A stretch of DNA of 64,000 bases from an uncultured Candidatus Saccharibacteria bacterium (GCA_964615415.1 CAZTNI010000003.1:15235-79234), one strand, 5' to 3'; counted from the first letter of the stretch, positions 687-63,900 are shown. The notes: generated by a model from the letters alone, not told the origin. Made by a program: numbers and translations.

Positions 687-708
687 AAATTGATACTCTA
701 AGCGCTAC

Positions 709-42377: not shown

Positions 42378-42713
42378 ATGATGAAATTGGTCGCCCATAT
42401 AGTGGTTATTGCTCTTGCCGTGCTCCTCATTCCTAATGTCATTCCAGGAATCTCGGTAGACGGCTTCGGCACAGCGCTTATAGTCTCAATCGTGTGGGGG
42501 GTTATAGGTATTACCGTTAAGCCACTCCTGAACCTTTTGGCTCTTCCTATAAATCTGCTCACTTTCGGGCTGTTCTCTTTTGTTATAAACGCGCTCTTGT
42601 TCTGGCTTGTGGGGGCGTTTGTCCCAGATTTCTCGGTTGCAGGTTTCGTACCTGCGCTCCAAGGCTCACTTATTTTGGCTGTGGTTACGTGGCTTCTCCA
42701 CGCAATCTTTTAA
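42378..42713 (+). CDS. Small membrane protein, DUF360/phage_holin_4_2-like (YvlD family)
   Basis: 111 aa with 4 TM segments. A GFLxAL-type pattern. Confidence 0.5.
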   Translation: MMKLVAHIVVIALAVLLIPNVIPGISVDGFGTALIVSIVWGVIGITVKPLLNLLALPINLLTFGLFSFVINALLFWLVGAFVPDFSVAGFVPALQGSLILAVVTWLLHAIF

Positions 42714-45998: not shown

Positions 45999-46070
45999 AA
46001 GAGGGAAGTCTGAAAATTGCCAAAAGTCGTCAAGCTTTTATACATTCGGGATCATATTAAAAATATGTCA

Positions 46071-46100
46071 AAACCGCTCTGAAGACGAGCGGTTTTTACG
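46071..46100 (+). terminator. Intrinsic terminator
   Basis: aaaccgctc-tgaagac-gagcggttt followed by tttacgtttctt. Confidence 0.55.
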
Positions 46101-46524
46101 TTTCTTCGAAAATATAGTAGGGAGTTACTAATACAGGCTGCGAAAATTCAGGAAAATTTCTTCCGAGATTTACTATCTGCTGGACGAGATATCGATACGG
46201 CAAGACGATATACCTTTTATTTTCAACATTTATCGTTTTGAAAATATTTTACTGTATATCCGATAAAGCCTTGTTCTTGCGTTGATACAGATTTTTATAT
46301 TTTTTGAATAAATTTTCCCTTCAATAAGTGAAATAGAAATTTTTAGCAGTAGAAAAATAAACCTCAGTGAGGCCGTAGAAACGTTTTTAAGAAAGGGGCT
46401 AGTAGCCTCATTCTATCCACATATTTCCTTCAAAAAATACTCATAAATTTGAAAGTTGGCTCTACAATATTTTGTAGGGGAATAACCCGAACTCATTGTA
46501 AAACCAAAAGTTTTTTCGGATCGT

Positions 46525-49500
46525 ATGACGTCACCTAGTAAAATAATTTCAGACTCTGGGAAGCCTATGCTTCCAGCGCGCAAGGTGGCGCAGCGTCTTT
46601 CGTGCGCACAAGACTACGTTGGCAAGCTTTGTCGCGAAGGAAAACTGAAGGGCACACAGGTTCGAAATGCTTGGTTTGTTGAAGAAGATTCTATTGCTGC
46701 TTTTGAGGCTGCTCGCGAGGCTGCCCGTGAAGCCCGCTCAAAGGATCTCGCCGAATTGCGTCGTAAAGAAAGTGCGCAGTACCGCAAGACACACCCAACT
46801 CTGGATGGAATTGCGTCTTCGTGGGTAGGTCGGGGCGCTGTAGCGGCATTAGGAGCAGTATTGCTGCTGTGCTCTGTTGCGTTTGCTGGCGAGATGAACG
46901 GAACGCTTAATCTTTTTGCAGGCAAGCAGGAACAATCAGCGGCTATTGCTCAAGTTGAGTCACCATTTTTCGGCTCACATGCGTTTTCTGTTACTGTGCC
47001 GACACTTCCTACTTCAAATCTTGCAAAAGATTTTATTTCAGGAGCACTTTCATTTTTCTTTGGTAAAAAAGATACGTCACTTGCAGAGAAAACACCTACA
47101 GAGGCTCCGGTGGTGACTGATGAACAAAATGGTCTGGCCTCGCCAAGCGAGGAGAACCGAGGACCTTTTGTGCAGCAGACACCATCGGAGACTCCTGCTC
47201 GACCTGTTGTGCAGAATACGTACCCGGTTATTGAGCGCACCGTCGAGCGCGTTACTACCGTATCTGGGGTATCCGAGGAATATCTTGCGCAGCGTTTGAG
47301 TGAACTTACAAATTCTCTTAAGTCAGAAATCTTTTCTGCAATAAATTCTGTTAGCACGTCATATTCGTCAGGTGGTCCTACCAACAATATCGCACTCACG
47401 CAGCGCATCGATCGCCTTGATGGAGTGACACTTTCGAACGTGTCGGTAAACGGCATTTCTGGCTTAACTGCAAGCGATATTCCTGTACTTGCATATCTGC
47501 CGACCGCTGGTGGAATTGTGACTGGCTCGACTACTGTCGCGGCTGACTTTACTGTTTCGGGAGCACTCAGTGTTACCGGCGCAACCTCAACTTTTGCAGG
47601 TATTACTATCGCAAGTCTCGACTGTACTGCGTATGGTAACGACGGAAAGCTCACCACCGATGCGTCAGGTAACATAGTCTGCGCAGACGACTATGGAGCT
47701 GCAGGAGGCGCAGGGTCTCCAGGGGGCGCAAACACATATGTGCAGTTTAACGACAGCGGTAACTTTGGTGGCGATGCAGGTTTTGTATATAACAAGACAC
47801 TCGACCGTCTTACTGTTGTAAACGCTTCAACGACGAACTTTACTTCAGACAATGCAACGTCAACGAATCTCTTTGCAACACTTGCACGCCTCACTACTGC
47901 GACAATTTCCTCGCTTACAGTAGGTTCTCTGAACGGTCCGCTCCAGGCAAACAACGGAGTCGTCTCTGCAACGACATCGGTTGGTGTGCTCTATGGCGGA
48001 ACAGGTCTAACCACTGCACCAAGTTATGGCCAACTCCTCTTGGGTAATGCGTCAGGCGGATACGACCTTGTTGCAACATCGTCACTGGGTATTACCAGTG
48101 CGCAGTGGGGAAATATTACCGGCACTTTGTCTGACCAGACGGACCTCCAAAATGCGTTGAATGCAAAATTCTCACTTTCTGCATGGTACGCAACGACGAC
48201 TGATGGACTTGCACAAGGTGTAACGAATAAGTATTACAACGATAGTTTGGTTCTGACATACCTCGACACACTTTCAAAGGGATATTTCTTCTCAACTTCG
48301 TCGGCACAGTATTTTGTACACGCCTCTACGACAATCCCAAAGACATATACGGCGAATACATTCACTGGTTCACAAACATTTACAGGCGGCGTTACAGTAG
48401 GTTCTCTGAACGGTCCGCTCCAGGCAAACAACGGCGTCGTCTCTGCAACGACATCGGTTGGTGTGCTCTATGGCGGTACTGGGCTCACGACTGCACCAAC
48501 GTATGGTCAAGTGCTTCTTGGAAATGCCTCGGGTGGCTACGACTTGGTTGCCACGTCGTCGCTTGGTATTACGGGCGGTGGCGACCTTTCAAACTACCTC
48601 TCGCTCGCTGCGTGGTATGCAACGACGACCGACGGTCTTGCGCAGGGTTCAACAAATCGCTACTACTCAGACACACTCGTGGGCACATATATTTCAGGCT
48701 CGTCAACAGTTCCACATATTGGTGGTTCAGCATACGGTGACCTGTTGTACTGGACTGGTACGGCATGGTCAACGATCGCTACGTCATCGCTTGGAATTAC
48801 GAGCGGTTCGCTTGCGTTTAGCTATCCATTCCCAAATGCAGCAACATCAACACTTATTGCGTTTGATGGCGGACTCACTGCGTACGCATCGTCAACGATC
48901 GGCACTGGTACACAGGCGGGCGGCCTCACTATTCGCGGTGGCGCAACAACGACTGGCAATGCATATATTGCAGGTTCGTTGAATGCAGGCGCTACCACAC
49001 TTACGTCGCTTACTCTTACAAACGTCTTAACGCCAGCAAATGGCGGCACTGGTACCTCAACACCAGGTGTGTGGGGCGATGTGCTTACCTGGAACGGCAC
49101 TAACTGGCAGGGAACTGCAACGTCGTCACTTGGGTTGCCGACACTTTCTACGCTGTCATCATACGCACTTGCCTCACAAACCTTTGGCAAGGCGTGGGAG
49201 ATCACCAACGGCTATCTTGCACCAACATCAACGCTCGGCATTATTGTCGCAGCATCTTCAACAATTGGTAACGGTACTGCAGCAGGAGGACTCACTGTTA
49301 ACGGTACCGCAACAACAACATTGCTTGCTATTACAGGTCCTGGCACTTCGACGATCGCAAGTAACATCCGCATGAGTGGAGATATTATTCCTTCGGTAGA
49401 CAATACGTATTCATTGGGTAGCGAACTGTACTCATGGAAAGAAGTATTTATCGGTCCAGGCTCGCTCTACGTTAATGGTCAGCAAGTTATCTCAACGAAC

Positions 49501-52500: not shown

Positions 52501-55500
52501 AGTGGTTCAGGTTCTGAAAATGCAGGAGTAACCGTAGCACTCGACCTTACGAATCAAAACAATTGGACGGGTCTCCAGCGCTTTGTAAACGCATCATCAA
52601 GTGCGCTTTCTGGAACAATCGCCTCGTTTGGTGGCACTGCAACGTCATCATTCGGCGTTGATGGTGCATTAACGCTCGCGGGTGGGCTTAACGGTCCGCT
52701 CCAAGCAAACAACGGTGTGGTATCTGCAACGACTTCTATAGGTGTGAAGTATGGCGGTACTGGTCTTACAACAGCGCCGTCATACGGTAACGTGCTTGTG
52801 GGTGATGGCTTGGGTGGGTACACACTCACTTCAACATCATCACTCGGTCTTGGCGGTGGTGGTTCACAGTGGATCACTAATGCTGCAGACTTGTACTACA
52901 CGACTGGCAATGTCGGTATCGGCACAACATCTCCAAGTGGCAAACTCACCATCGCTGGTGGCAGCATTATTCATACAGCTTCGAGCTCTCCGGTTATCGC
53001 AAGTAGTACTAATACTGCGAGTGTGACGTACGGAAGTTATGTAGTTGGTAAGTACGCATATGTTGCAGACTTTGCGAGCGGTTTGCGCATTTTCGACATC
53101 ACCAGTCCGAAGAACCCGGTGCAAGTGGGCGCATACACAGGCATTAGTGGCGCAGTCTCAGTTGTGGTTGCAGGGAAGTATGCGTTCGTGAGCGACAACA
53201 CCGTTGGCCTTAACGTCATCGATGTTTCAAGTCCTGCGGCGCCGGTGCGTGTTGGTCAGCTTTCGACTGCAGGCCGCGCGTTTACGATGGAGCTTTCGGG
53301 TAAATACATCTACTACCCAGACATTTTGAGCGGTTTGGTAAAAGTAATTGATATTAGTAACCCAGAGTCGCCGGTCGTTGCAGGTACATTCGACACTGGC
53401 GGCGAGCCGTACGGCATTGCGCTTTCGGGCAAGTACCTCTTTGTTGGTGACCAGTTGAACGCAGTTATCGACATTCTCGATATTTCGAACCCAGTCTCAC
53501 CACTTTTGGTGCAGCAGTACTCTCCGATGGGTAGCCCAACAGGTATGTACGCCTCGGGTCGGTACCTCTATGCAGCAGATGCCACCGCAGGCCTCACCAT
53601 CTTCGATATTTCTGACCCGGCAGACATTACTGAAGTAGGGAATTATGGCGGCAACTTCTTTAGTGTCCAAGTAGCGGGCGAGTATGCATACGTAGGTAGC
53701 AGCGCAGGTGTTGTGTCAGTACTCGACATCCACGCTCCAGAGAGTCCAAAGTTTGTCGGCAGCTATTCTGCAGGTGCAAACGCTCGTAACATCTTCCTTT
53801 CTGGTAAGTATGCATACGTTGCAGCATCGGCAAACGGCTACCGCATCCTCGACATAAACGGTACACAAACGCCGTCAGCGACCATCGGCTCGCTCGAGGC
53901 AGATGTTGCAGTCGTAAATGACAACCTCCGTGTCGGAGGAAATATTTTGGCGCAAGGCGGTCTCGATGTTGGTATCTCAGGTATCTTCTCGCGCGGTGCA
54001 CTCGGCGTGTTTGTTGCATCATCAACACAAACGAACGCAGTCGCAGCAACCTTTATGGGTGGGTACGTCGGCATCGGCACCACGACTCCAGGCCGTGCAC
54101 TCGCAATAGAAGGTGCGTCACTCCTCGGCAACAGTGCAACTGCAGGGTATTTCACTGCTACAACGACAACTGCATCACAATTCCCATACGCATCGACAAC
54201 CGCTATCACTGCAACAACAGCGTCAACAACCAACCTCTATATCTCTGGCGTCCTTTCATCACTCCTTAAGACAAATGCATCAGGCCAGGTGGTTGCAGCA
54301 GTCGCCGGCACTGACTACGCAAACTTCGCATACCCATTCATCAACAGTGCAACCTCATCACTCCTTACATTCTCTGGCGGTCTCACTGTCTCAGCAGGCA
54401 ACCTGACGCTTGGTTCTCTTAATGGCCCACTCCAGGCAAACAACGGTGTCGTATCAGCAACCACATCTGTTGGGGTACTCTACGGCGGCACTGGCCTTAC
54501 CTCTACTCCAACCTACGGCCAGCTCCTCTTAGGCAACGGCACAGGCTACACACTTACCTCAACCTCATCACTCGGTCTTCTCTCAGCACTCACTCGTGAC
54601 TGGAACATGACGAATGGCTACCTTGCTCCTACAACGACCGTGGGCATCATTGTTGCTGCATCTTCGACTATTGGTTCTGGTTCACAAACTGGTGGTCTTA
54701 CCATTAACGGTGGTGCAACAACAACGGGCAACGCTTACTTTGCAGGGAATGTAGGAATTGGCACGTCGAACCCTAGTGCAAAATTAACGGTAGAAACTTC
54801 GTCGGCAAATCCCGCATTGGTGATTAATGGCACTGATGCTAACGACTGGATTAGTTGGCACTTCCAGCGACAGGGAACTGCAAAAGCAGGATTTGCGATA
54901 TCGAACCTCGGCACATATGGCGGCAATGCGTTTACCATCTCTACACATAACGGTGTAGGGTGGCAAGATTCAGCTGTGTTTGAAAGCGGTGCTCCTACCG
55001 GTACGTTGTATGCAACAGCAGCTGGCAACCTTGGTGTCGGCACCACGGCCCCAGCTTACAAACTCGATGTAGCAGGCTCTATAAATGTAGACGAATATTC
55101 GGGTTACAAGTTGGGTGGCAATACAGTGTTGTACGCTTCAACTACAAACACGTCGCTTGCGGTGGGGGCGTCAGCAGCTGCTTCATGGATGGCTGCATCG
55201 TCAACTGTGTGGAATAGTGTTGCAATCGGTTCTGGTGCTCTTGCCACAGCCCCTGTTAATGCAAATGCAATCAATAACATGGCGATTGGCACGAATGCGC
55301 TTCGCAACCTTACGACGGGCACAAACAACGTGGGTATTGGTAAGGACACGCTGTACACCAACACTTCTGGTTCAGAAAACTTCGCACTTGGTACCGGAGC
55401 TTTGTACTACAATAATGGCGACTATAACGTTGGTATTGGCGCTGGTGTGCTCCAAAACAACACGACTGCAAGTTACAACATCGGTATTGGCCGCCTCTCG

Positions 55501-58500
55501 CTCCAAAACAACACAACTGGCGCTAACAACATCGGCATTGGCGGCGCAACGCTTAACCAGGCAACATCTTCAAGCAACAACACTGCTATCGGTCACTACG
55601 CAGGGTACTCAATTTCTGGAGCAACAGGAGATGTGGGAGCAGGCAACACACTTATTGGTTATCAGGCAGGTACGGACATTACAACCGGTAGCTACAACAC
55701 GATCCTCGGGTACTTCACTGGCAGTGGCAGTTCAGTAACGACCGGCAGCAACAATATCCTTATTGGCCAGGATGTCCGCGCAGGTCTTACTCAAACAGGG
55801 TCTAACCAACTTAATATTGGTAACCTCCTCTTTGGTACCGGCCTTGGGAGTGGAACGACTGGTGCGTCGGGCAACATTGGTATCGGCACATCATCACCAT
55901 ACGCAAAACTTTCTGTAGCGGGGGACATTGTTGGTACAAACATAACCGCAACAGGCACATTGTCAGTTGCTGGCAACACCACACTTGCAAACGCAACATC
56001 ATCAGCGTTTGCTATCACTTCAATTGCGTCAGCATTGTTGAAGACAGATGCGTCAGGAAATATCATCCCAGCAGTTGCAGGCACTGACTACGTTGCTGGT
56101 TCGTCATACTTCTCATACCCATTCCCGTCAAACGCAACAACAACTGCAATTGCGTTCAACGGAGGTCTTTCAGCAAGTGCATTTACACTCGGTACACTCA
56201 ACGGCCCACTGCAGGCAAACAACGGGGTAGTGTCAGCAACAACATCTGTTGGTGTTCTCTATGGCGGCACAGGACTTACCTCAATCGCATCTTCAACCCT
56301 CATTATCGGCAACGCACAGGGCGGCTTCTCACCAATCGCAACCTCATCACTTGGTCTTGTTGCATTTGCTGACCTCACACCATACGCACTTGCGTCACAA
56401 ACCTTCGGCAAAGCATGGGAGATTACGAACGGCTACCTTGCTCCAACTTCAACGCTCGGCATCATTGTTGCGGCTTCATCAACGATCGGTGGTGGTACAC
56501 AGACTACAGGTCTTACCGTTAATGGTGGTGCGACGACGACTGGTAACTTAATAGTGCAGGGAAGTGGCACATCAACTATTGCTACTGCGCTTGCTATCGG
56601 CGGCGATGGTTCGGGCGCATATCAAGATGCTATGGACTTTGTTGTCGGTTCTCTTACAGGAGCAAACGGTATGACTATCCGCTCAGGCACCGCAGGTGTT
56701 GGAAACATCTTCTTCTCTGATGGTGTTTCTGGCTCTGCACAATATGCAGGAATGATCTCATACAGTCATTCGTTCGACCGGTTCCAAATCACTACCGGTG
56801 GTTCGGGCTACAGCGGCTCAAACGGTATGTACATTACCTCAAACGGCAACACTGCTATCGGTACCACAACCCCATACAGCAAGCTCACCACCTGGGGCAC
56901 CGGCTCACTCTTCGAAGCAGTTACAAACGCATCAACAACTATCTTCAAGATCGGCCAAGCAGGTGCAACCACAACAGCTCTCGCAATCTCGTCGATCACC
57001 TCATCACTCCTCAAGACCGACGCAAACGGTAATGTTATTCCAGCAGTCGCCGGCACTGACTACGCAAACTTCGCATACCCATTCATCAACAGTGCAACCT
57101 CATCACTCCTTACATTCTCTGGCGGTCTCACTGTCTCAGCAGGCAACCTGACGCTTGGTTCTCTTAATGGCCCACTCCAGGCAAACAACGGTGTCGTATC
57201 AGCAACCACATCTGTTGGGGTACTCTACGGCGGCACTGGCCTTACCTCTACTCCAACCTACGGCCAGCTCCTCTTAGGCAACGGCACAGGCTACACACTT
57301 ACCTCAACCTCATCACTCGGTCTTCTCTCAGCACTCACTCGTGACTGGAACATGACGAATGGCTACCTTGCTCCTACAACGACCGTGGGCATCATTGTTG
57401 CTGCATCTTCGACTATTGGTTCTGGTTCACAAACTGGTGGCCTGACCATCAACGGCGGCGCAACGACGACGGGGAATGGGTATGTTGCAGGAACTTTCGG
57501 AGTTGGCACGACAACACCGGTCGGTACTTTTGGCGTAAATGGCACTTTGAAAGTCTTCTCGTCTACTTGGGCAACAAGTAGTATTTCCGGTCCGTTTGAA
57601 ATTATGGGTCCCGACACTGGCGACAGTACACTCCTTCGTCTTGCGGGAACGCGTCCGTGGGAATTTAAAGAAAATGGATCAGGCGCAGGTAGTGGGCTCG
57701 GCTTGTACAGCTTGAATGCTGACGGATCTCAGGGTAATAAATGGTTCACCATCTTCACCTCGCGCACTAACTTGGCGGGTCAGGATGGAACACAACGTTT
57801 TACCTTTAATCACGACTCTGGTGCTATGACGGGAGGCAATGTTTCTCTCGAGTCATGGGCAGCGACATCAGTTGGGTTGAAAATCACTGCAACCACAACT
57901 CAAACAGCAGACCTTACGCAGTGGTTGAATGAAAGTAATGCTCTGGTGGCGAACGTAACTGCTGCGGGTAACTTTGGTCTCGGCACCTCTTCTCCATACG
58001 CAAAACTTTCTGTCGCAAGTAGTACTGGTACGCTCATTGCGGCGGATGCGCCGTCAGCCTTTAGCGGCACCCTTCTTGACCTTAAGGTTGCATCATCATC
58101 AGTCTTTACAGTAGGTGCAGCAGGTGCAACCACTACCAACCTTGCAGTCACGGGCATCACCTCAAGTCTCCTCAAGACAAACGCACTCGGCCAGCTTGTT
58201 GCAGCAGTAGCAAACACCGATTACTCAGCATTTGGCTACCTCTTCCCAGCAAATGCAACGACAACAGGTCTTGGCCTCTACGCTTCAACAACAATCGGTG
58301 CAGGCACTCAAACAACAGGCCTCACCATTTCTGGCGGCGCGACGACGACTGGCAACTTGTATATTGCGGGGAATGTAGGTGTTGCTTCAACTACTCCATG
58401 GGCACGTCTCTCGGTAGATACTTCAAGTTTGGCAGTAGGTGTTCCTGCATTTGCAGTAGGATCATCAACACGCACTGACTTTGTTGTTACCCAGGCAGGC

Positions 58501-61500
58501 CAAGTGGGCATAGGCACCTCCACACCAAGCGCATCTAGCCTCCTCCATATAGTTGGCGAAACGACTGGTAATAACACGGCGGTGATGGCAACGATCCAAA
58601 ACTACAACGCACAGGGGAGAGCAACCTTCTCTGCGGCGAATAATCAAGGCGACACCGCAGGTTTTCAAGTGACTGGGCCAAGCTTGTCTGGTCTTAGTTT
58701 GGACCGCAGCGCCATCGTCTTTGGAACAGGCACTCGCCAGATGGTATTGATGCCTGACGGTAATGTTGGAGCGACGGGCACGTCCTCGATTCTCTTCCGT
58801 CTCGGTGGGTACAACGCGTCTCGCGATCTTATTGCCTTTACCTACCAGGGGTACCAGGGCATTGGCACAACGTCGCCGTTTGCAAAATTGCAGGTGGCAT
58901 CAAGTTCTGCAAATGCATCAAATTTTGGACAACTTGCGCTGACTGATACAAATGCAGGGACTAACCTTAAACATTGGTTAGTGTCTTCTCTCGGAGGCTC
59001 TCTCTTTATCGGCACAACGACTGATACATATGCAACATCAACTGTTGCTGCGCTTGCTATAAATCAAAATGGCCGCGTCACGATCGGAAATGATCTCACT
59101 GTTAACGGTAGTGCAACAACAACGGGCAACGCATACTTTGCAGGCAATGTTGCTATAGCTACTTCCTCGCCGTTTGGAAATGGGTGGCTGACTATAGGCA
59201 CATCTTCTCCACGTTTCTATGTAGACAATACAACTGGCAGTATTGGTATTGGCACTACAACACCAACCTCTACGTTGCATATAGTTGGTCGTTTGAGTGT
59301 CGGTTCTCCTTCAACTAACTCTACTGCGGAGAGAAATCTTTTCATTTCAGACTCTGGCGCAGCAGTTGCACGCGGCTCAAGCACAGTCTTGATCGGTAAC
59401 AATATAAACACCAACTCATCGGATCTTTCTACTTCGGGCACGGACTGCAGCGTGGTTGTTGGTAACAGTGCATCTACTCCGGGCGGCAACAACGATTATT
59501 GTCAGGTAGTTATCGGAGCAAGTGCCAAGGTTGCAATCTCTGTCTTAAGCGCGGCAGAGCCAAAAAACACAGTTATTGGTGCATCGGCGCTCTCACGAGA
59601 TGGTGCTGACAACGTTGCAATTGGTTATACAGCATCAACACGTGGATACAACGCAGTTGCAATTGGCTCAGGCGCGCTTGCTTCAAGTACTGGCGCAATT
59701 GCAATTGGTATGGGCACGCTTGCCTCAAGTACAAATTCTTTAGGTATCGGCAGAAATGCAGATGTTAGCGGAAATTCTTCGGGCAATATTGGCGGGACAA
59801 GTCTGACGGTTACTCAAGACAATACCTTCTCATACGGCATTACTTCAACAAAGCATGGTTTCGGCACAGTAAGTCCATCAGCACAACTCCATATCGCTTC
59901 CACTACTGGGTGGGGAGACATGTTTAAAATTACGGCAGGGAACCAACTCCTTGTTGTTAGTCAGCCAGGCAATCTTGGGTTGGGAACTTCTTCTCCGTAT
60001 GCGCGTCTTTCAGTCGCAAGCAGCACCGGTACGCTCATTGCGGCGGATGCTCCAAGTGGTTTCTCTGGCAAGCTTCTTGATCTTAAGGTTGCGTCGTCAA
60101 CAATCTTTAGTGTGGGCCCAGCAGGCGCAACCACAACCGCACTCGCTATTGCAAACCTTACGGCAGCAGACTGCGATGTGAAATCGACCACCGATGGCTC
60201 GCTCTACTGCGGTACAGACGCAACTGGTTCTGGGTCTGCATTCCCATTCATCACTACTTCGTACGGTGTTTCAACTTCGACCTTGGTTGGATTTACTAAC
60301 GGCATCCTCTCACTTGCATCAACAACAATTGGTGGCGGCACACAGACAACAGGCCTCACTATTTCTGGTGGCGCAACAACAACAGGCAATGCTTACTTTG
60401 CAGGAAATATTGGTGTTGGCACAATCTCTCCTGAAGTAAGTCTCCATGTTACAGCTCTGACCTCTTCGCCGCAGACATCTGGAACCACTGCAGCTGGAAG
60501 TCTTGCGCTTGAGACGACAAACGACAATGGCTTGTACTTCGGCTCGTACGGCACAACTCCATTTGGTTCATGGATCCAGGCAAGCAACCGTGCAGACCTT
60601 TCTATCTCGTACCCAATTATCCTTAACCCGAATGGTGGCAATGTTGGTATCGGCACCACCTCGCCATACGCAAAACTTTCTGTTGTTGGTTCTGTAGTGG
60701 CAGACAGCTTTGCTGCAACATCAACGACTGCAACGTCAACCTTTGCTGGCGGTCTTTCGGTAGGTAATGGCTCACTCCAGTACGACTTCTCAAGTGGAGT
60801 AACATCAATCGACAACCTGTCGCTCGGTGCACTTAACTTCGACACCGACGCAGGCATTCTTTCTTGGATAGACATGCCAGTTACTTCAAACGCATCGCAG
60901 GGGACTGTTATGAGCTACACAGCGCAGCTTGATGGCAACCCGCTTCTTACTGTCTACGGCGAGTCTAATGGGTCGGGCGGTATACAAAATACTGCGATTG
61001 GTATTGGCACCACCTCTCCATACGCAAAACTTTCTGTCTCTGGTGCAGTTGTTGCTGCAAACTTTGTTGCAACTACGACAAGTATCTCAAGCTTTACGTA
61101 CGCATCTACGACAGCGCTTTCTGCAGACACGCTCTGTCTTGCGGGCGACTGCCGTACCTCATGGCCATCGGGCGGCGCGGGGGCATATCCGTTTACTGTT
61201 TCTGGCAACGCAACCTCAACATTAACGCAATTTAACGCCGGCCTTACCGCATATGCATCGTCAACTATTGGCGCAGGTGCACGCGCTACTGGCCTTACAA
61301 TACACGGTGGTGCAACGACAACAGGTATTGCTTACTTTGCAGCAAATGTTGGTATTGGCACCACGTCGCCGTTCCGTCCACTTTCAATCTCTTCTGCAAC
61401 TGATGCAAATATTGAAATCTACAACTCTGCAAATGCGCGTGGTATGAAAATAGGTCTACTCGATGGCTTTAACGCGGGTATCGACTCTACAGGTGGTGCA

Positions 61501-63900
61501 ACTGTTATTAACGGCAACGGTACGACATATCTCACCGTTGGTTCTGGTGGCAACACCTACTTTAACGATCTTGGCGGGACCTTTGGCAAGGTGGGCATTG
61601 CCTCAAGTACCCCGTGGGGTCTGTTGTCAGTGAACGGAAACGCTCTCACGTCCGGAGCTCCACAATTTGTTGTCGGCTCTTCAACCAAAACAGACTTCAT
61701 TGTTACCAATGCGGGCAATGTGGGCATCGGCACTACTTCTCCATACGCAAAACTTTCAGTTATTGGTGGTGGCAACAACGGCGTCTACCCATCGTTTGTT
61801 GTTGCAACAACATCAGATTGGTTGAGTAGAGGTACGGGCGGTCAGGCGCCACTCTTCTACGTAACTGCAACCACAACCGGCGACCTCGACTATGCTCGTG
61901 TGGCTATCGGTACTACAACCACGTTGGGTAGTCCGGCTGGTTTGCGCGACCAGTTTACCGTTGCGGGCCGTATTTACTCAACCTGGGGTTACATGTCCTG
62001 CGATGTGCCAGGTGTTGCCACAACCCTTACGGCCGACACGCCAAACGCCTGCGGCGACTTTGCACTCGACGAGTTGACCGACGGCGACCTTATCAACCAA
62101 GCGTCAGTCTACCCACCGCTTGCACGTCTTGCGCCGGGTACTGGTACTGGCCTTGCGGCAAACGAAGGTGCAGTGATTCGTGGCAACAACTCTATGCCAG
62201 CTACGACGAGCCCTGTGATGGAAGTAACGTCGCGCATTGTTGCAGCAAACTCAACCAGTACCCTCTACCTTATCGGCTTTGCAGACGTAAACTTTGGTAC
62301 TGGCACCATCGCTATCCCACAAAACGGTGCATTCTTTGCGGCATCATCAACTGACAGTACGTGGAAGGCTATCGTTCGCTCAAACAATGTTGAAACTCGC
62401 GTCGACACCAACATCGCTACAACATCTACTGCGGGCACGCTCCATCGCTTCCGTATCGAAGTTTCTTCTTCATCTGTTGTCTTTATGATGAATGGCAATA
62501 TTGTTGCAAACATTGCGCCAGCTGCAGCGCCGCGTCGCCCTATGGCACCGATGCTCTTGGTAGGTCGTTTTACCGGCGCAACTGCGGGCACCATTAACAC
62601 CAGTGGTAACGTAAGCAGTCTCGACTTTGGTAGTTTGCGTGTGTGGGTGGACGACCCGCCTGCAACCGCTGCTGCGCCGGACACTATCATTACTGCTGAA
62701 GATATTGCCTATAGTGCAGTTGAAGGTGCAGACATTGCGGAAGCAGAGTTGGTGCATGATGCGGGTCAATATCTCCCAGGTCTTATAGTGACGCACGCAA
62801 CAACGACTGGTGTAGATATGGTGAGCCTCTCGCAGGGTCGCTACGCATCGTCGGTGCTTGGTGTTGTTTCAACCGCACCGCACACAACACTTGGCCAGGA
62901 AACTGCTTCTACGGTGCGTGTTGGTCTTGTGGGTCGCGTGCCAGTTATTGTCTCGCTTGAAAATGGTCCTATTGCAAAGGGTGATGTAATTGCGCCGTCA
63001 TCAATCCCAGGCGTTGGTATGCGCGCAACGCGTCCTGGTTCTACGGTAGGTACTGCGTTTGAGAGCTTTGCAACGTCAACCGAGCAGAGCGAACCTATGT
63101 GCGATCCTGCACTTAGACAGCAGCTTGTAGACGTAGGTATTGCAGTCCCAACAGATGCTTGTCTCTCGACAGTGCTGGTTGCACTGAACCCGGGCACAAA
63201 CATGAGTATCGGCGACGTGTTGCAAGATGCAGGCAACCCAATAACCGACTTTGCAGGTGCGATGCTTGAGCTTGCAAATGCTGCGTACGGCAAGGGAGCA
63301 GAGTTGTTGAAGATGGTTGTAGGAGAGTTGGTAGCAAAGGTTGCGGTTATAGGAGATTTGTTTGCAGACAATATTACCGCAACAGTGATAAATGCTGACA
63401 CTGTTAATACTAAGACACTGTGTCTCGACGGACTCTGTGTCACTAAGGATCAACTCCAGAGTCTTCTCGATGGAGCTGGGGTAGAGAGCGCTCCGCAAAA
63501 TAATCCACCATCACCAGATGCTGGCACAACAACCCCTGACGCAGAGGCCCCGGTAGTAACTGTTAATGGCAACAATCCTGCAACTATCTCTGTTGGTGCG
63601 ACATACAGCGACCTTGGGGTAACGGTCACGGACAACAACGATAGTAATATTGGCTACACGTTGACGCTTAATGGAGGCGCGTCTATGACTCAAGACCAGC
63701 TCGTTATCGATACGTCGGTCGCTGGTGAACATACTATTGTATATACCGCTGCAGACACCGAGGGAAATGTAAGTACGGCAACTCGTATTGTTATCGTTGA
63801 AGCGCCTGCTGCTCCTGAAGCTCCAGAAGCACCTGTAGTAGTTGTAGAAGAAGGAAGTGGTGACGGTTCAGAATCTGCTTCTAGTACTCCACAAGAGTAA
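46525..63900 (+). CDS. Giant (5,791-aa) membrane-anchored multi-domain surface fibre / adhesin-like protein. It has an N-terminal HTH_17-like domain plus a TM anchor, tail-fibre-like Thr/Ser/Gly-rich repeats, a 7-blade LVIVD beta-propeller, two YadA-head (Hep_Hag)-like beta-roll regions, a ConA/LamG-like region and a C-terminal DUF5011/Ig-like domain
   Basis: A single stop-free 17,376-nt ORF. An alternative start at ATG 46567 puts the HTH at the extreme N-terminus. A TM helix AVAALGAVLLLCSVAFAG sits at ~aa 100-120. Repeats recur: LNGPLQANNGVVSATTSVGVLYGGTGLT (at least 9 times) and GNVGIGTTSPYAKLSV (at least 12 times). LVIVD repeats at nt ~53040-53880 (GKYAYVADFASGLRIFDITSPKNPVQVGAY, 7 times). 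Hep_Hag-like NSVAIGSGALA...NNMAIGTNAL... at ~55170-55800 and ~59380-59830. The C-terminal segment PVVTVNGNNPATISVGATYSDLGVTVTDN...TIVYTAADTEGNVSTATRIVIV is DUF5011-like. Confidence 0.85.
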   Translation: MTSPSKIISDSGKPMLPARKVAQRLSCAQDYVGKLCREGKLKGTQVRNAWFVEEDSIAAFEAAREAAREARSKDLAELRRKESAQYRKTHPTLDGIASSWVGRGAVAALGAVLLLCSVAFAGEMNGTLNLFAGKQEQSAAIAQVESPFFGSHAFSVTVPTLPTSNLAKDFISGALSFFFGKKDTSLAEKTPTEAPVVTDEQNGLASPSEENRGPFVQQTPSETPARPVVQNTYPVIERTVERVTTVSGVSEEYLAQRLSELTNSLKSEIFSAINSVSTSYSSGGPTNNIALTQRIDRLDGVTLSNVSVNGISGLTASDIPVLAYLPTAGGIVTGSTTVAADFTVSGALSVTGATSTFAGITIASLDCTAYGNDGKLTTDASGNIVCADDYGAAGGAGSPGGANTYVQFNDSGNFGGDAGFVYNKTLDRLTVVNASTTNFTSDNATSTNLFATLARLTTATISSLTVGSLNGPLQANNGVVSATTSVGVLYGGTGLTTAPSYGQLLLGNASGGYDLVATSSLGITSAQWGNITGTLSDQTDLQNALNAKFSLSAWYATTTDGLAQGVTNKYYNDSLVLTYLDTLSKGYFFSTSSAQYFVHASTTIPKTYTANTFTGSQTFTGGVTVGSLNGPLQANNGVVSATTSVGVLYGGTGLTTAPTYGQVLLGNASGGYDLVATSSLGITGGGDLSNYLSLAAWYATTTDGLAQGSTNRYYSDTLVGTYISGSSTVPHIGGSAYGDLLYWTGTAWSTIATSSLGITSGSLAFSYPFPNAATSTLIAFDGGLTAYASSTIGTGTQAGGLTIRGGATTTGNAYIAGSLNAGATTLTSLTLTNVLTPANGGTGTSTPGVWGDVLTWNGTNWQGTATSSLGLPTLSTLSSYALASQTFGKAWEITNGYLAPTSTLGIIVAASSTIGNGTAAGGLTVNGTATTTLLAITGPGTSTIASNIRMSGDIIPSVDNTYSLGSELYSWKEVFIGPGSLYVNGQQVISTNGSNDVVVSTDPGENLVLQTSGSSNIEFNPTGGQILFKNTVNVTAGKSITTTDLSALSIPNGVAAGNITVSGNAITATNLNGGISITPTGTGGTYVTAGNFGIATTSPLAKLDVYGNMILSGTGRYINFDYTTGSSGYGFRDNSGVLEFKNANGAWAPFASSTGYLALSSWYATTTDGLDEGSTNQYYTNERVDDRVGTLLQAGSGVTLNYNDGSDTLTISATGGGGGGTDVNWTYFNGSGLYPSTSTNQVLVGGTSTSSLQSPLAKLGVIGGASIDYASTTGITSSYASSTAAYFGSLSVGNLTGILQAINGTVSASSSVSVAFGGTGLTTAPTYGQLLMGTAAGGYSLVATSSLGITGTTYTFNYPLTESAGVVSLAFGTTTANTWSAHNSYSSLFATNASTTNATTTNFAVTGLTNTLVKTNALGQLVAAIAGTDYQTFAYPFPSNATTTSIAFNGGLTTTGATIGTLNGPLQANNGVVSATTSVGVLYGGTGLTSIASSSILIGNAQGGFTAVATSTLGFASASSLSNYLSISAWYATTTDGLAQGVTNRYYSDTLVAAYISASSTIPHIGGSAYGDMLYWTGTAWSTLATSTLGLPTFASLASYLALDAWYATTTDGLDEGSNNQYFTQQRATDNFIANLAATTSVASITTLQNLSITSSQVSNFNTSLNSYIHSSTTIPKTYTANTFTGAQTFSGGLSISTLNGPLQANNGVVSATTSVGVLYGGTGLTSTPTYGQLLVGNGTGYTLTSTSSLGLLSSTSIQAVAPLSWNANTGALSIAQATASTDGYLASADFTTFNNKVSSSSLIAFNNTFREWSLVNGVLVPTSTVGVIVSASSTISGGLTVVGNATSTSAAITSITSSLLKTNSLGQLVAAVAGTDYLTSASLEPSFTFATNFGVLTAATSSTIWAQSGLFASSTSRFANIIAANATTTSLYIASLTGPLQAVNGQVSATSTLSVAYGGTGATTLNDLITLGTHTTGNFLATLANGGGLTVSGSGSENAGVTVALDLTNQNNWTGLQRFVNASSSALSGTIASFGGTATSSFGVDGALTLAGGLNGPLQANNGVVSATTSIGVKYGGTGLTTAPSYGNVLVGDGLGGYTLTSTSSLGLGGGGSQWITNAADLYYTTGNVGIGTTSPSGKLTIAGGSIIHTASSSPVIASSTNTASVTYGSYVVGKYAYVADFASGLRIFDITSPKNPVQVGAYTGISGAVSVVVAGKYAFVSDNTVGLNVIDVSSPAAPVRVGQLSTAGRAFTMELSGKYIYYPDILSGLVKVIDISNPESPVVAGTFDTGGEPYGIALSGKYLFVGDQLNAVIDILDISNPVSPLLVQQYSPMGSPTGMYASGRYLYAADATAGLTIFDISDPADITEVGNYGGNFFSVQVAGEYAYVGSSAGVVSVLDIHAPESPKFVGSYSAGANARNIFLSGKYAYVAASANGYRILDINGTQTPSATIGSLEADVAVVNDNLRVGGNILAQGGLDVGISGIFSRGALGVFVASSTQTNAVAATFMGGYVGIGTTTPGRALAIEGASLLGNSATAGYFTATTTTASQFPYASTTAITATTASTTNLYISGVLSSLLKTNASGQVVAAVAGTDYANFAYPFINSATSSLLTFSGGLTVSAGNLTLGSLNGPLQANNGVVSATTSVGVLYGGTGLTSTPTYGQLLLGNGTGYTLTSTSSLGLLSALTRDWNMTNGYLAPTTTVGIIVAASSTIGSGSQTGGLTINGGATTTGNAYFAGNVGIGTSNPSAKLTVETSSANPALVINGTDANDWISWHFQRQGTAKAGFAISNLGTYGGNAFTISTHNGVGWQDSAVFESGAPTGTLYATAAGNLGVGTTAPAYKLDVAGSINVDEYSGYKLGGNTVLYASTTNTSLAVGASAAASWMAASSTVWNSVAIGSGALATAPVNANAINNMAIGTNALRNLTTGTNNVGIGKDTLYTNTSGSENFALGTGALYYNNGDYNVGIGAGVLQNNTTASYNIGIGRLSLQNNTTGANNIGIGGATLNQATSSSNNTAIGHYAGYSISGATGDVGAGNTLIGYQAGTDITTGSYNTILGYFTGSGSSVTTGSNNILIGQDVRAGLTQTGSNQLNIGNLLFGTGLGSGTTGASGNIGIGTSSPYAKLSVAGDIVGTNITATGTLSVAGNTTLANATSSAFAITSIASALLKTDASGNIIPAVAGTDYVAGSSYFSYPFPSNATTTAIAFNGGLSASAFTLGTLNGPLQANNGVVSATTSVGVLYGGTGLTSIASSTLIIGNAQGGFSPIATSSLGLVAFADLTPYALASQTFGKAWEITNGYLAPTSTLGIIVAASSTIGGGTQTTGLTVNGGATTTGNLIVQGSGTSTIATALAIGGDGSGAYQDAMDFVVGSLTGANGMTIRSGTAGVGNIFFSDGVSGSAQYAGMISYSHSFDRFQITTGGSGYSGSNGMYITSNGNTAIGTTTPYSKLTTWGTGSLFEAVTNASTTIFKIGQAGATTTALAISSITSSLLKTDANGNVIPAVAGTDYANFAYPFINSATSSLLTFSGGLTVSAGNLTLGSLNGPLQANNGVVSATTSVGVLYGGTGLTSTPTYGQLLLGNGTGYTLTSTSSLGLLSALTRDWNMTNGYLAPTTTVGIIVAASSTIGSGSQTGGLTINGGATTTGNGYVAGTFGVGTTTPVGTFGVNGTLKVFSSTWATSSISGPFEIMGPDTGDSTLLRLAGTRPWEFKENGSGAGSGLGLYSLNADGSQGNKWFTIFTSRTNLAGQDGTQRFTFNHDSGAMTGGNVSLESWAATSVGLKITATTTQTADLTQWLNESNALVANVTAAGNFGLGTSSPYAKLSVASSTGTLIAADAPSAFSGTLLDLKVASSSVFTVGAAGATTTNLAVTGITSSLLKTNALGQLVAAVANTDYSAFGYLFPANATTTGLGLYASTTIGAGTQTTGLTISGGATTTGNLYIAGNVGVASTTPWARLSVDTSSLAVGVPAFAVGSSTRTDFVVTQAGQVGIGTSTPSASSLLHIVGETTGNNTAVMATIQNYNAQGRATFSAANNQGDTAGFQVTGPSLSGLSLDRSAIVFGTGTRQMVLMPDGNVGATGTSSILFRLGGYNASRDLIAFTYQGYQGIGTTSPFAKLQVASSSANASNFGQLALTDTNAGTNLKHWLVSSLGGSLFIGTTTDTYATSTVAALAINQNGRVTIGNDLTVNGSATTTGNAYFAGNVAIATSSPFGNGWLTIGTSSPRFYVDNTTGSIGIGTTTPTSTLHIVGRLSVGSPSTNSTAERNLFISDSGAAVARGSSTVLIGNNINTNSSDLSTSGTDCSVVVGNSASTPGGNNDYCQVVIGASAKVAISVLSAAEPKNTVIGASALSRDGADNVAIGYTASTRGYNAVAIGSGALASSTGAIAIGMGTLASSTNSLGIGRNADVSGNSSGNIGGTSLTVTQDNTFSYGITSTKHGFGTVSPSAQLHIASTTGWGDMFKITAGNQLLVVSQPGNLGLGTSSPYARLSVASSTGTLIAADAPSGFSGKLLDLKVASSTIFSVGPAGATTTALAIANLTAADCDVKSTTDGSLYCGTDATGSGSAFPFITTSYGVSTSTLVGFTNGILSLASTTIGGGTQTTGLTISGGATTTGNAYFAGNIGVGTISPEVSLHVTALTSSPQTSGTTAAGSLALETTNDNGLYFGSYGTTPFGSWIQASNRADLSISYPIILNPNGGNVGIGTTSPYAKLSVVGSVVADSFAATSTTATSTFAGGLSVGNGSLQYDFSSGVTSIDNLSLGALNFDTDAGILSWIDMPVTSNASQGTVMSYTAQLDGNPLLTVYGESNGSGGIQNTAIGIGTTSPYAKLSVSGAVVAANFVATTTSISSFTYASTTALSADTLCLAGDCRTSWPSGGAGAYPFTVSGNATSTLTQFNAGLTAYASSTIGAGARATGLTIHGGATTTGIAYFAANVGIGTTSPFRPLSISSATDANIEIYNSANARGMKIGLLDGFNAGIDSTGGATVINGNGTTYLTVGSGGNTYFNDLGGTFGKVGIASSTPWGLLSVNGNALTSGAPQFVVGSSTKTDFIVTNAGNVGIGTTSPYAKLSVIGGGNNGVYPSFVVATTSDWLSRGTGGQAPLFYVTATTTGDLDYARVAIGTTTTLGSPAGLRDQFTVAGRIYSTWGYMSCDVPGVATTLTADTPNACGDFALDELTDGDLINQASVYPPLARLAPGTGTGLAANEGAVIRGNNSMPATTSPVMEVTSRIVAANSTSTLYLIGFADVNFGTGTIAIPQNGAFFAASSTDSTWKAIVRSNNVETRVDTNIATTSTAGTLHRFRIEVSSSSVVFMMNGNIVANIAPAAAPRRPMAPMLLVGRFTGATAGTINTSGNVSSLDFGSLRVWVDDPPATAAAPDTIITAEDIAYSAVEGADIAEAELVHDAGQYLPGLIVTHATTTGVDMVSLSQGRYASSVLGVVSTAPHTTLGQETASTVRVGLVGRVPVIVSLENGPIAKGDVIAPSSIPGVGMRATRPGSTVGTAFESFATSTEQSEPMCDPALRQQLVDVGIAVPTDACLSTVLVALNPGTNMSIGDVLQDAGNPITDFAGAMLELANAAYGKGAELLKMVVGELVAKVAVIGDLFADNITATVINADTVNTKTLCLDGLCVTKDQLQSLLDGAGVESAPQNNPPSPDAGTTTPDAEAPVVTVNGNNPATISVGATYSDLGVTVTDNNDSNIGYTLTLNGGASMTQDQLVIDTSVAGEHTIVYTAADTEGNVSTATRIVIVEAPAAPEAPEAPVVVVEEGSGDGSESASSTPQE
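54296..54695 (+). repeat. 400-bp perfect direct repeat, copy 1 (inside the giant gene)
   Basis: Nucleotide-identical to 57041-57440 by manual line-by-line comparison. Confidence 0.8.
57041..57440 (+). repeat. 400-bp perfect direct repeat, copy 2 (inside the giant gene)
   Basis: Identical to 54296-54695. The two copies are separated by 2,745 bp, in the same reading frame. Confidence 0.8.

Follow-up and report, generated by a model that had tools for sequence, protein, structure and literature searches.

What kind of protein requires 5,791 amino acids (aa), and how would a chain of that length be anchored, folded and put to use? The question is raised by a single gene in a stretch of 64,000 nucleotides (nt) from an uncultured Candidatus Saccharibacteria bacterium (GCA_964615415.1, CAZTNI010000003.1:15235-79234; henceforth, the window). 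This gene, here called the giant gene, starts with an ATG and runs for 17.4 kb to its stop codon with zero internal stops; by a hand estimate, the chance of 5,791 codons without a stop, (61/64)^5791, is ~1e-121. An earlier description made from the letters of the window alone (the sequence-only reading) had proposed an uninterrupted open reading frame for a membrane-tethered surface mega-protein with a tail-fibre-like shaft and adhesin domains. The frame is indeed intact from ATG to stop, and the general character of the product is borne out by a profile match to the mosaic adhesive trimer (MAT) fibres of Bdellovibrio, by a fold of the type found in gp12 of phage phi29 and by domain matches. 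We consider it probable that the giant protein is a membrane-anchored (type II), most likely homotrimeric, phage-fibre-like adhesin with a lectin tip.

46525-63900, plus strand: whole giant gene, 5,791 codons plus stop.

The last ~700 residues of the protein are non-repetitive and have homologs at 38-48% identity. An AlphaFold model of the C-terminus (AF2, on the homolog alignment; model confidence given as predicted local distance difference test, pLDDT) has three confident domains. The features of this C-terminal cassette are:

61981-62664, plus strand: ConA-like lectin/glucanase-fold beta-sandwich (aa ~5153-5380), putative glycan-binding tip, AF2 pLDDT ~75-88.
62725-62742, plus strand: conserved G-A-D-I-A-E motif (aa 5401-5406), with predicted cleavage at A5402/D5403.
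62731-63210, plus strand: auto-chaperone domain of the phi29-gp12 type (beta-tulip, aa 5403-5562), within which lies the conserved Cys pair C5526/C5546.
63247-63438, plus strand: long helix (aa ~5575-5606), predicted with low confidence in the model, then C-x4-C, KTLCLDGLCVTKDQLQSLL (C5633/C5638).
63559-63798, plus strand: Bact_surface_Ig-like (DUF5011) domain (aa 5679-5758), PF16403.
63799-63897, plus strand: acidic tail rich in Pro/Glu (aa 5759-5791), with a net charge of -8.

For the ConA-like domain, the best Foldseek match in the PDB is the L-lectin module of SraP, a staphylococcal adhesin (4m00, E 2e-8), followed by the lectins ERGIC-53/VIP36, glycoside hydrolase family 16 (GH16) enzymes and BoNT Hc, by which botulinum toxin binds its receptor, at a Foldseek probability of 1.0 and with target TM-scores of 0.5-0.65 for single-domain targets. 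The ConA/LamG-like jelly roll that had been proposed earlier is, thus, right as a fold by AlphaFold and Foldseek, but Pfam Laminin_G has no match on the giant protein (a weak Laminin_G_3 match occurs in the relative P0010 only), and a separate conserved domain, aa 5403-5562, had been lumped in with it. The GH16 catalytic motif, ExDxxE, is absent from the ConA-like domain; on the modelled structure, a lectin role is, therefore, more likely than an enzymatic one.

The separate domain, aa 5403-5562, has the beta-tulip fold of the phi29 gp12 C-terminal domain, as found by a fold search on the predicted structure. In phi29, that domain is an auto-chaperone, which is cleaved off after the tailspike has folded (PMC3357383, PMC4690869), and mature gp12* ends at residue 691 (PMC6542822). 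In gp12, taken from the phi29 genome, the C-terminal domain reads W-S691, D692-F-A-E695-Y, then IIGVISETAGFVLGES and VVGLLGQIAVRI; its counterpart in the giant protein reads G-A5402, D5403-I-A-E5406-A, then VLGVVSTAPHTTLGQE and VGLVGRVPVIV, with D5403-I-A-E5406 aligned to D692-F-A-E695. We take D692 and E695 of gp12 to be the catalytic residues after the scissile bond. The motif D-[ILV]-A-E is present in each of the eight distant giants whose domain could be placed by motif search (8/8) and, by eye, in P0047 too. Fold and motifs together point to homology with the gp12 auto-chaperone, which is shown, in the model, for the fold. A fold search was required to identify the domain because sequence-only methods miss the relationship: a profile of the C-terminal mid-domain run against PDB sequences yielded insignificant matches only (a portal protein, E 0.04; the Aureispira grappling hook, E 2).

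For the jelly-roll region, the sequence-only reading had proposed a CxxC-containing end-cap. There is no C-x-x-C anywhere in the protein; the motif is actually C-x4-C, CLDGLC at C5633/C5638, with a second one at 4871/4876, and the trimer-capping element is more likely the gp12-like beta-tulip domain. The DUF5011 Ig-like domain and its acidic tail, also proposed there, hold up: PF16403 scores 34.6-35.7 bits vs a cutoff of 27, and the model shows a confident beta-sandwich (AF2 pLDDT ~93). After beta-tulip and helix, members of the family end in one of two ways, as seen over the C-terminal ~150 columns of an alignment of relatives P0001-P0024. The first, as here, consists of 'KLCxGxxCVT' and the DUF5011 Ig domain; the second is a 'LPGGxIxVPxGxNQIxG...FDW' beta-module, identified by Pfam as K1-lyase_C, the C-terminal domain of phage K1 capsule lyase. 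We rejected K1-lyase_C (PF24146) for the giant protein itself, as the matches of its relatives map to the alternative ending that is not present here. Peptidase_S74 likewise has no Pfam match in the giant protein; S74 or S74-like motifs do occur in some of its relatives. Amongst 77 giant relatives (those of at least 2,500 aa within the top 150 family matches), 13 carry an S74-like SDxRxK motif near the C-terminus, and 24 are matched by a D-x-A-E/GRVPV regular expression, which undercounts. Judging from these motifs, the family may use both known classes of tailspike chaperone.

Towards the N-terminus, the cassette is preceded by a repetitive shaft that makes up most of the protein.

47515-61794, plus strand: mosaic repeat shaft (aa ~331-5090), with unique inserts between units.
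49399-49449, plus strand: 'DNTYSLGSELYSWKEVF' motif (aa 959-975), core of the phage-matching stretch.
53032-53868, plus strand: seven LVIVD repeats (aa ~2170-2448), presumed 7-bladed beta-propeller, PF08309.
55102-55854, plus strand: ~17-residue 'N-x-x-A-I-G' repeat region (aa 2860-3110), YadA-like by eye only.
59350-59949, plus strand: YadA-head-like repeat segment (aa 4276-4475).

Four residues (T 14.0, G 13.3, S 11.6 and A 11.5%) together account for 50% of the composition of the giant protein. Internal repeats were mapped by BLAST of chopped fragments against the whole protein. We counted 13 units of 'LNGPLQANNGVV..YGGTGLT', seven each of 'FAYPFPSNATTT' and 'LLKTN..AGTDY', 24 of 'ASSTIG..GGATTTGNAY' and 22 of 'GNVGIGTTSPxAKLxV'. 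Their rough order is LLKTN..AGTDY, FAYPFPSNATTT, LNGPLQANNGVV..YGGTGLT, AWYATTTDGL or WEITNGYL, ASSTIG..GGATTTGNAY, GNVGIGTTSPxAKLxV and, finally, a variable insert. The recurrence of short motifs that had been noticed in the bare sequence is confirmed by exact counts and by hidden Markov models (HMM): LNGPLQA has eight exact copies and 13 by HMM, GGATTTG seven exact and 24 by HMM, and AWYATTTDGL about five (4-5). The repeated modules are present as described, but they are not confined to ~1,800 aa; they extend over aa ~300-5100, with unique inserts.

The link to known fibres is provided by a profile of the last two shaft elements (14 internal copies), which matches the Bdellovibrio MAT structures Bd2133/8OND (E 4e-5) and 8OL4 (E 2e-3). 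The chains 8OML, 8OJN and 8ON4 are matched as well; together with 8OL4, these are four 'cell wall surface anchor family protein' chains. Moreover, the capping-loop motif that is a hallmark of MATs, V-G-G/N-pi-x-x-P-x-x-x-L, is seen in the 22 'GNVGIGTTSPxAKLxV' copies. From its motifs, we infer that the shaft is a mosaic of beta-helix-type modules. A tblastn search with aa 401-1000 against 50,697 phage genomes matched only aa ~942-998, a motif of ~50 aa (DNTYSLGSxxxxWKxVF), in Marine virus AG-345-D19, Xanthomonas jumbo phages and phage C48C1 (E 6e-11 to 1e-4); the matched proteins are annotated as tail fiber domain-containing protein in the Xanthomonas jumbo phages and as structural protein in C48C1. 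With PHROGs, the whole protein gave only an N-terminal DNA-binding match and no tail-fibre or structural family. The idea of a tail-fibre-like shaft is, thus, right in kind, by way of the MAT fibres and the gp12-type domain, but direct similarity to phage amounts to one motif of ~50 aa. The profile of 'LNGPLQANNGVV..YGGTGLT' met only chance beta-lactamase matches in the PDB and was set aside.

Two kinds of insert stand out in the shaft. The LVIVD repeats, predicted beforehand as a 7-blade propeller, are confirmed by Pfam in seven stretches (PF08309, E 5.5e-48, 160.5 bits vs a cutoff of 20.2), with blades starting at aa 2177, 2219, 2261, 2304, 2347, 2387 and 2429, a spacing of ~42 aa. Two YadA-head/Hep_Hag-like segments had also been proposed, one of which stands. 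Scanned alone, aa 4276-4475 pass the Pfam threshold for YadA_head (26.9 bits vs a cutoff of 25), and phmmer searches of the PDB, run on three thirds of the protein, gave only marginal matches to trimeric autotransporter adhesins (TAAs): AtaA 3wp8 at E 0.003 and YadA 1p9h at E 0.0095. The other segment, aa 2860-3110, was rejected as a YadA head, having a period of ~17 aa and no Pfam or PDB match; its eight 'N-x-x-A-I-G' copies are spaced at 16-20 aa, match P0028 marginally by BLAST and are absent in P0050, the ortholog of the giant protein.

At the other end, the protein begins with a domain that would remain inside the cell.

46567-46734, plus strand: cytoplasmic HTH_17/MerR-like helix-turn-helix (HTH) domain (aa ~15-70), then a Lys/Arg/Glu-rich linker (aa ~70-99).
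46822-46890, plus strand: single transmembrane (TM) helix or signal anchor (aa ~100-122), N-in.
46891-47514, plus strand: membrane-proximal non-repetitive linker (aa 123-330), collinear with P0050 at 45-57% identity.

The sole strongly hydrophobic 19-mer of the protein lies at aa ~100-122 (Kyte-Doolittle 2.21), and an N-in orientation is assigned because the net charge is +6 over the 99 residues before this segment vs -2 after it. On these grounds, the protein is probably membrane-anchored. The N-terminal anchor proposed earlier is, thus, a TM helix, but the cytoplasmic HTH ahead of it had been overlooked. By fragment self-comparison, the linker that follows (aa 123-330) has almost no internal repeats.

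The identity of the HTH is shown at the level of the family. The N-terminus of the giant protein matches a DNA-binding PHROG (E 1e-3) and, in Pfam, HTH_17 (E 4e-4). HTH_17 is the top Pfam family in six of the seven N-termini of family members that were tested, amongst them P0050, P0047 and P0067, for which it is the best match; in the seventh, P0099, it ranks third and above the cutoff (MerR 55.6 bits, HTH_17 34.7 bits). P0159 also exceeds the cutoff, with 38.3 bits for HTH_17. Scanned with an HMM built from family N-termini, 34 of the 77 giant relatives have an N-terminal HTH, followed in 25 of these 34 by a clear hydrophobic segment; a further 19 have only the N-terminal hydrophobic segment and no HTH. 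By these comparisons, cytoplasmic HTH, TM helix and giant fibre are a recurrent fusion, not an accident of this gene. The HTH could serve as a DNA tether, as a ToxR-like regulator or as a RodZ-like docking module.

Taken together, these parts suggest how the protein may be built and used. The first ~99 residues (HTH and basic linker) would stay in the cytoplasm and one TM helix would anchor the chain, a topology predicted from hydrophobicity and charge, while the remaining ~5,670 residues would be exported with the N-terminus retained. By analogy with phi29 gp12, the beta-tulip domain would fold outside the cell, trimerise and bring three chains into register, whereupon the shaft may zip up from the tip back to the membrane. 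The shaft itself would be a beta-helix-type mosaic with 22 'GNVGIGTTSPxAKLxV' loops of the MAT kind, the LVIVD propeller and the YadA-head-like roll forming lateral or globular inserts. The D-x-A-E motif at A5402/D5403 may, with some uncertainty, drive autocleavage as in gp12 and shed the last 389 residues; after cleavage, the distal tip that binds glycans would be the ConA-like lectin domain. Scaled from Bd3182 (922 aa, about 55 nm), the fibre would be ~0.2-0.3 um long. Such a length is expected to be comparable to that of an ultra-small cell, and the fibre may capture or hold a host via surface glycans. Adhesion, glycan ligand and host are all putative.

Comparison with P0050 bears on this design. 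The ortholog, 4,660 aa, is encoded on a 651-kb JGI contig, at locus L046, in a gene order that is the same as in the window: SecA, cytidylyltransferase, DsbD, Obg, GatB, a small HTH-TM gene and the giant gene. It is collinear with our protein over aa 1-450, the LVIVD block and the last ~770 residues. In between, its shaft is reshuffled and contains neither of the YadA-like segments. Conserved ends and a reshuffled shaft fit a design in which a constant anchor and a constant chaperone/tip cassette would be combined with variable reach and decoration.

The family is much wider than this pair. An exhaustive profile search with the C-terminal cassette over 1.84 billion cluster representatives found 3,343 proteins at E<1e-30 and ~100,000 at E<1e-3, many of the latter probably on account of nothing but the shaft motif; lengths of 3,000-7,900 aa are common amongst the best matches. 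All relatives with names, and 42 of 44 related loci in GTDB species-representative genomes, belong to Patescibacteria lineages (Paceibacterota, Parcubacteria, Minisyncoccia, Sungii-, Zambryskii-, Taylor- and Magasanikbacteria and bins labelled Saccharibacteria). The other two, L035 and L045, are on contigs of 4.3 kb and 18 kb in bins labelled Gammaproteobacteria and Pseudomonadales, and are more likely mis-binned Candidate Phyla Radiation (CPR) contigs than an occurrence outside Patescibacteria. The view of a large, uncharacterised protein of host-attached bacteria is, thus, sustained in so far as the relatives are mostly Patescibacteria/CPR, but the protein is not unique: a public copy exists (P0043), and family members number in the thousands. 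In the literature that we searched, on giant proteins, adhesins, tail fibres, HTH and LVIVD in Patescibacteria, Parcubacteria and CPR, we found no description of this giant family.

The surroundings of the giant gene are those of a chromosome. Its neighbours, by Pfam, include MurB, SecA, ClpP, a DsbD-like protein, Obg and GatB; a cell-surface glycan-synthesis cluster fills the first ~35 kb of the window, and no capsid, portal, terminase or tail gene was found amongst the Pfam-annotated neighbours. The gene context is cellular and chromosomal rather than phage, and the organism is best read as a member of the Patescibacteria, of the Paceibacteria/Parcubacteria type. The ortholog and three other relatives are also located amongst housekeeping genes.

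1-34400: surface glycan cluster, with numerous GT1/GT2/GT4 glycosyltransferases, UDP-glucose/GDP-mannose dehydrogenases, epimerases and GDP-mannose dehydratase.
1-34400: further genes of the surface glycan cluster, namely GtrA, a PMT_2-type transferase, asparagine synthase and a Wzy_C O-antigen-ligase-TPR protein.
45177-45998, plus strand: 273-aa paralog of the giant protein's HTH, consisting of HTH (HTH_17, 25 bits), acidic linker and C-terminal TM helix.
46070-46096, plus strand: terminator-like hairpin and T-run, separating the giant gene from that of the 273-aa paralog.

That the glycan cluster might glycosylate the Ser/Thr-rich fibre is pure speculation. Two of its open reading frames, of 725 aa (10482-12659, minus strand) and 313 aa (4195-5136, plus strand), have no Pfam match at E<=1e-5. 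Neither tRNA genes nor Rfam families were found in the window. The only phage-flavoured neighbour (42381-42713, plus strand) encodes 110 aa, is flanked by the DsbD-like gene and obg and has a Pfam match to Phage_holin_4_2 in the Logan annotation.

The window holds just two copies of the HTH, one in the 273-aa paralog and one in the giant protein. The paralog, a possible partner of the giant protein, has a counterpart at the equivalent place in the ortholog locus (E 2e-39; 33% overall, with HTH and TM near-identical). As a universal partner it was rejected: it occurs only in the close ortholog locus and is absent upstream in three distant loci. The intergenic region between the two genes (45999-46524, 526 nt) is AT-rich and contains no obvious Shine-Dalgarno sequence before the giant ATG; the ~45 nt directly 5′ of this ATG and a CGAGATATCG block near 46190 in the leader are conserved with the ortholog locus. 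Given the terminator-like hairpin between the two genes, the giant gene is probably served by an AT-rich leader (~430 nt) and a promoter region of its own. On the other side, the stop codon lies 100 nt before the end of the window, so that the downstream position, occupied elsewhere by Laminin_G_3 genes, lies outside. In three of four relatives' loci, multi-domain Laminin_G_3 (ConA-like) proteins of ~680 to >1,340 aa are encoded downstream of the giant gene.

L046, 20474-23725: downstream Laminin_G_3 gene.
L049, 15390-18866: downstream Laminin_G_3 gene.
L050, 17132-20654: downstream Laminin_G_3 gene.

Before other readings are weighed, the gene model itself needs attention. The public copy, P0043, is 5,777 aa long and begins at Met15 (46567). 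P0050 has no equivalent of Met15 and yet conserves the 14 residues upstream of it, for which reason the start at 46525 is more likely correct than the database start at 46567. Furthermore, the gene contains a long exact repeat.

54296-54695, plus strand: 400-nt exact direct repeat, first copy (second copy at 57041-57440).

The two copies are in frame and 2,745 nt (915 codons) apart; their flanks are only ~93-96% identical, and the remaining exact repeats are all of 43 nt or less. The 915-aa block between the copies could have arisen by a recent duplication with gene conversion, or it could be an error of repeat resolution; the reading frame and both ends of the protein are unaffected by either origin. 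GC skew is negative (C>G) over most of the giant gene (48000-62000) and positive in the rest of the window, which is probably a matter of the codon composition of the Thr/Ser/Ala-rich repeats.

Several observations weigh against the adhesin reading. The 400-nt repeat leaves the copy number of the 915-aa block uncertain. The relationship with gp12 is missed by Pfam, which finds neither Peptidase_G2 (PF11962) nor any other family on aa 5386-5642 at E<=1; phage genomes searched by tblastn with the beta-tulip domain gave nothing; and hhalign against the single gp12 sequence returned a probability of just 4%. Where gp12 has Ser691, just ahead of the conserved Asp, the giant protein has Ala, and its relatives vary. 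Also, the putative cleavage site is followed by an Ig domain and an acidic tail, which is odd for a pro-peptide that is to be discarded; by analogy with the P22 tailspike, the chaperone domain may instead be retained. The A, B, C and D motif families, which make up most of the shaft (well over 1,000 aa), have no match amongst PDB or phage sequences. The giant protein's own HTH_17 score is below the Pfam cutoff (21 vs 27 bits). Finally, the trimeric state is suggested by homologs alone.

Could the size of the protein be due to the assembly, a chimera or a wrong number of repeat copies having yielded a chain that is in truth shorter, longer or interrupted? The exact in-frame repeat, which is an assembly risk because it is longer than one short read, bounds precisely the 2,745-nt unit that would be at issue, and the ortholog has a single copy of the repeat module. 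An independent Logan assembly (k=31) ends inside the first repeat of the giant gene. P0043 is no independent witness: its NCBI contig (229,972 nt) has the 273-aa neighbour on it too and, hence, very likely stems from the same assembly as the window. Set against this are 17.4 kb of unbroken frame; the first 5.4 kb of the locus, that is, GatB, the 273-aa gene and the first 473 giant codons, which are identical in the Logan assembly (0 mismatches); the collinearity of N-terminus, propeller and C-terminal cassette with the syntenic ortholog; and the fact that A-R-B-R-C is the sole linear path that uses every segment. We regard an artefact as unlikely, and in the worst case it would alter the length by 915 aa, not the kind of protein. 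A genuine giant could also be a monomer, 'beads on a string' in the manner of SiiE, MpIBP or SraP, in which the phage-like elements would be mere stalk modules. Numerous giant bacterial adhesins are monomeric, Foldseek ranks the binding region of SraP, a monomer, first for the tip cassette, and Ig-like domains and beta-propellers are typical of such proteins. Yet the MAT fibres, the phi29 appendage and YadA are all described as trimers (PMC10769870, PMC6542822, PMC3357383), and the shaft is not a tandem array of the Ig or cadherin kind, so that we hold a monomer to be rather improbable. Still less can be said for an enzymatic weapon, in which the ConA-like domain would be a GH16-type glycanase that degrades the cell wall of prey. 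GH16 glucanases, carrageenases and alginate lyases do occur amongst the Foldseek matches, and giant proteins of predatory ultra-small bacteria such as Omnitrophota are linked to cell-wall degradation (10.1101/2023.11.21.568195). However, lectin and receptor-binding domains score equal to or above the enzymes, no glycoside-hydrolase family matches anywhere in the protein by Pfam and the ConA-like domain has neither an ExDxxE nor an ExDxE motif; for want of the catalytic motif, we rejected the idea as very improbable.

A tail-fibre gene of a phage, prophage or tailocin residing in the chromosome would account for the gp12-like chaperone fold, for the one motif shared with jumbo-phage tail-fibre and structural proteins and for the small Phage_holin_4_2 gene ~4 kb upstream. 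All Pfam-annotated neighbours, however, are concerned with housekeeping or glycan synthesis and none is a virion gene; the synteny recurs in a second genome, and four other family members are also found amid housekeeping genes. A cytoplasmic N-terminal domain and a TM anchor are unlike a virion protein, and PHROGs has no structural-protein match, all of which makes a phage origin of this kind barely credible. More weight is due to the N-terminal HTH, by which the protein might be a contact sensor or membrane-tethered regulator with signalling as its main role. The fibre would sense contact with a host, or tension, and the HTH would alter transcription by binding DNA as in ToxR/CadC or after release by proteolysis; this would be compatible with adhesion. 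The recurrence of an HTH_17/MerR-like N-terminus in 34 of the 77 giant relatives favours it, as do the second HTH-TM protein, encoded immediately upstream and kept in the ortholog locus, and the long AT-rich leader with blocks conserved in the ortholog. On the other hand, no operator or target site was identified, the HTH score of the giant protein itself is sub-threshold, and the 19 giant relatives that have the hydrophobic segment only imply that the HTH is dispensable for the fibre. Besides, the HTH of a bitopic protein can be a protein-docking module, as in RodZ, which binds MreB. A regulator is, in our judgement, a minority possibility that deserves to be kept in mind. The same tentative standing is given to a 'contact-to-genome' device, of a class not recognised before, in which a trimeric fibre would be wired through its TM helix to a DNA-binding HTH, host contact or tension would be passed on to transcription or to a nucleoid tether, and the HTH-TM paralog would be a partner. 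A membrane-anchored, fibre-like adhesin with a lectin tip remains the reading that we prefer.

How does such an adhesin compare with known systems? MAT fibres are surface-displayed, intertwined trimeric beta-helices, similar to phage tail fibres, with a capping-loop motif; their tips vary (S74 chaperone, beta-sandwiches, TNF-like and C-type-lectin folds), and binding of prey glycans has been demonstrated (PMC10769870). The Bdellovibrio MATs Bd2133 and Bd3182 have in common with the giant protein the 'GNVGIGT(T/A)xPxAKLxV' loop, the mosaic design, a conserved cell-proximal end, a distinct distal tip, a C-terminal chaperone-type domain and the option of a lectin-type tip; in both cases, the bacterium lives on other cells. 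They differ in size (~1,000 aa vs 5,791 aa) and in taxon (Bdellovibrionota vs Patescibacteria). [quoted passage not shown] LVIVD propellers and YadA-like inserts are not mentioned for MATs in the available text of PMC10769870. Since the N-terminal signal peptide and beta-rich domain are lacking, the giant protein is MAT-like, not a MAT.

The pre-neck appendage (tailspike) of phage phi29, gp12 (PDB 3GQH/3GQ7/3SUC), whose auto-chaperone is presumably MEROPS G2, shares the beta-tulip fold and the Asp/Glu directly after the position of the scissile bond. In the giant protein, unlike in gp12, a helix, C-x4-C and an Ig domain come after the beta-tulip, Ala and not Ser occupies P1, and cleavage is predicted only; its body is ~8 times longer and membrane-anchored, not attached to a virion. 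With the TAAs YadA and AtaA, long fibres that project adhesive heads and are obligate trimers, it has the YadA-head-type segment in common. It is not a TAA, because the whole-protein Pfam scan shows no 12-stranded beta-barrel translocator/anchor; the anchor is N-terminal and the polarity opposite, and the organism is expected to be a monoderm without outer membrane. SraP (PDB 4M00), the best Foldseek match, is also a huge surface protein in which a ConA-like lectin domain is followed by beta-sandwich domains. It is a monomeric, LPXTG-anchored serine-rich-repeat (SRR) glycoprotein exported by the accessory Sec system; in the giant protein, the Pfam scan finds no LPXTG-anchor or SRR-type family. 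ToxR/CadC and RodZ have an analogous topology, with a cytoplasmic N-terminal HTH, a single TM segment and an extracytoplasmic domain. This would be a functional analogy only: their HTH is of the OmpR or Xre type vs HTH_17/MerR-like, and the external part of the giant protein comprises ~5,670 residues.

Giant surface-targeted proteins have been reported from other CPR and ultra-small bacteria, namely Absconditicoccaceae (PMC13059738) and Omnitrophota (10.1101/2023.11.21.568195). Like these and like Aureispira GhpA (5,898 aa, PDB 9FLP), our protein is very large and surface-targeted, with adhesion-type domains and a proposed role in contact with host or prey. These proteins differ from ours in their sets of domains, with FN3, integrin and Ca-adhesin repeats or, in Omnitrophota, many TM helices and SecA-like domains; GhpA matches the giant protein insignificantly (E 2). 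An HTH-TM anchor, a MAT-type shaft and a gp12-type chaperone are described for none of them in the texts available.

Giant surface proteins in CPR (PMC13059738), MAT fibres and tailspike auto-chaperones are, hence, already known. New is the combination of HTH-TM anchor, a MAT-type shaft five to eight times longer than known MATs, propeller and YadA-like inserts, lectin tip and gp12-type chaperone. The MAT/phage-fibre principle gains a third mode of anchoring, by way of HTH and TM helix, and a chaperone of the gp12 instead of the S74 type; a cytoplasmic HTH is, moreover, recurrently fused to giant extracellular fibres. As to how CPR of the Paceibacteria/Parcubacteria type find and hold their hosts, the literature stresses type IV pili and unnamed 'adhesins'. 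The giant family provides a concrete and very widespread candidate attachment organelle (3,343 cluster representatives at E<1e-30), whose assembly logic, taken over from phage tailspikes, is predictable and whose tip has a defined lectin fold. Indeed, the tip alone could serve as a probe that identifies the host, on glycan arrays or on environmental cells, as has been done for Bdellovibrio MAT tips.

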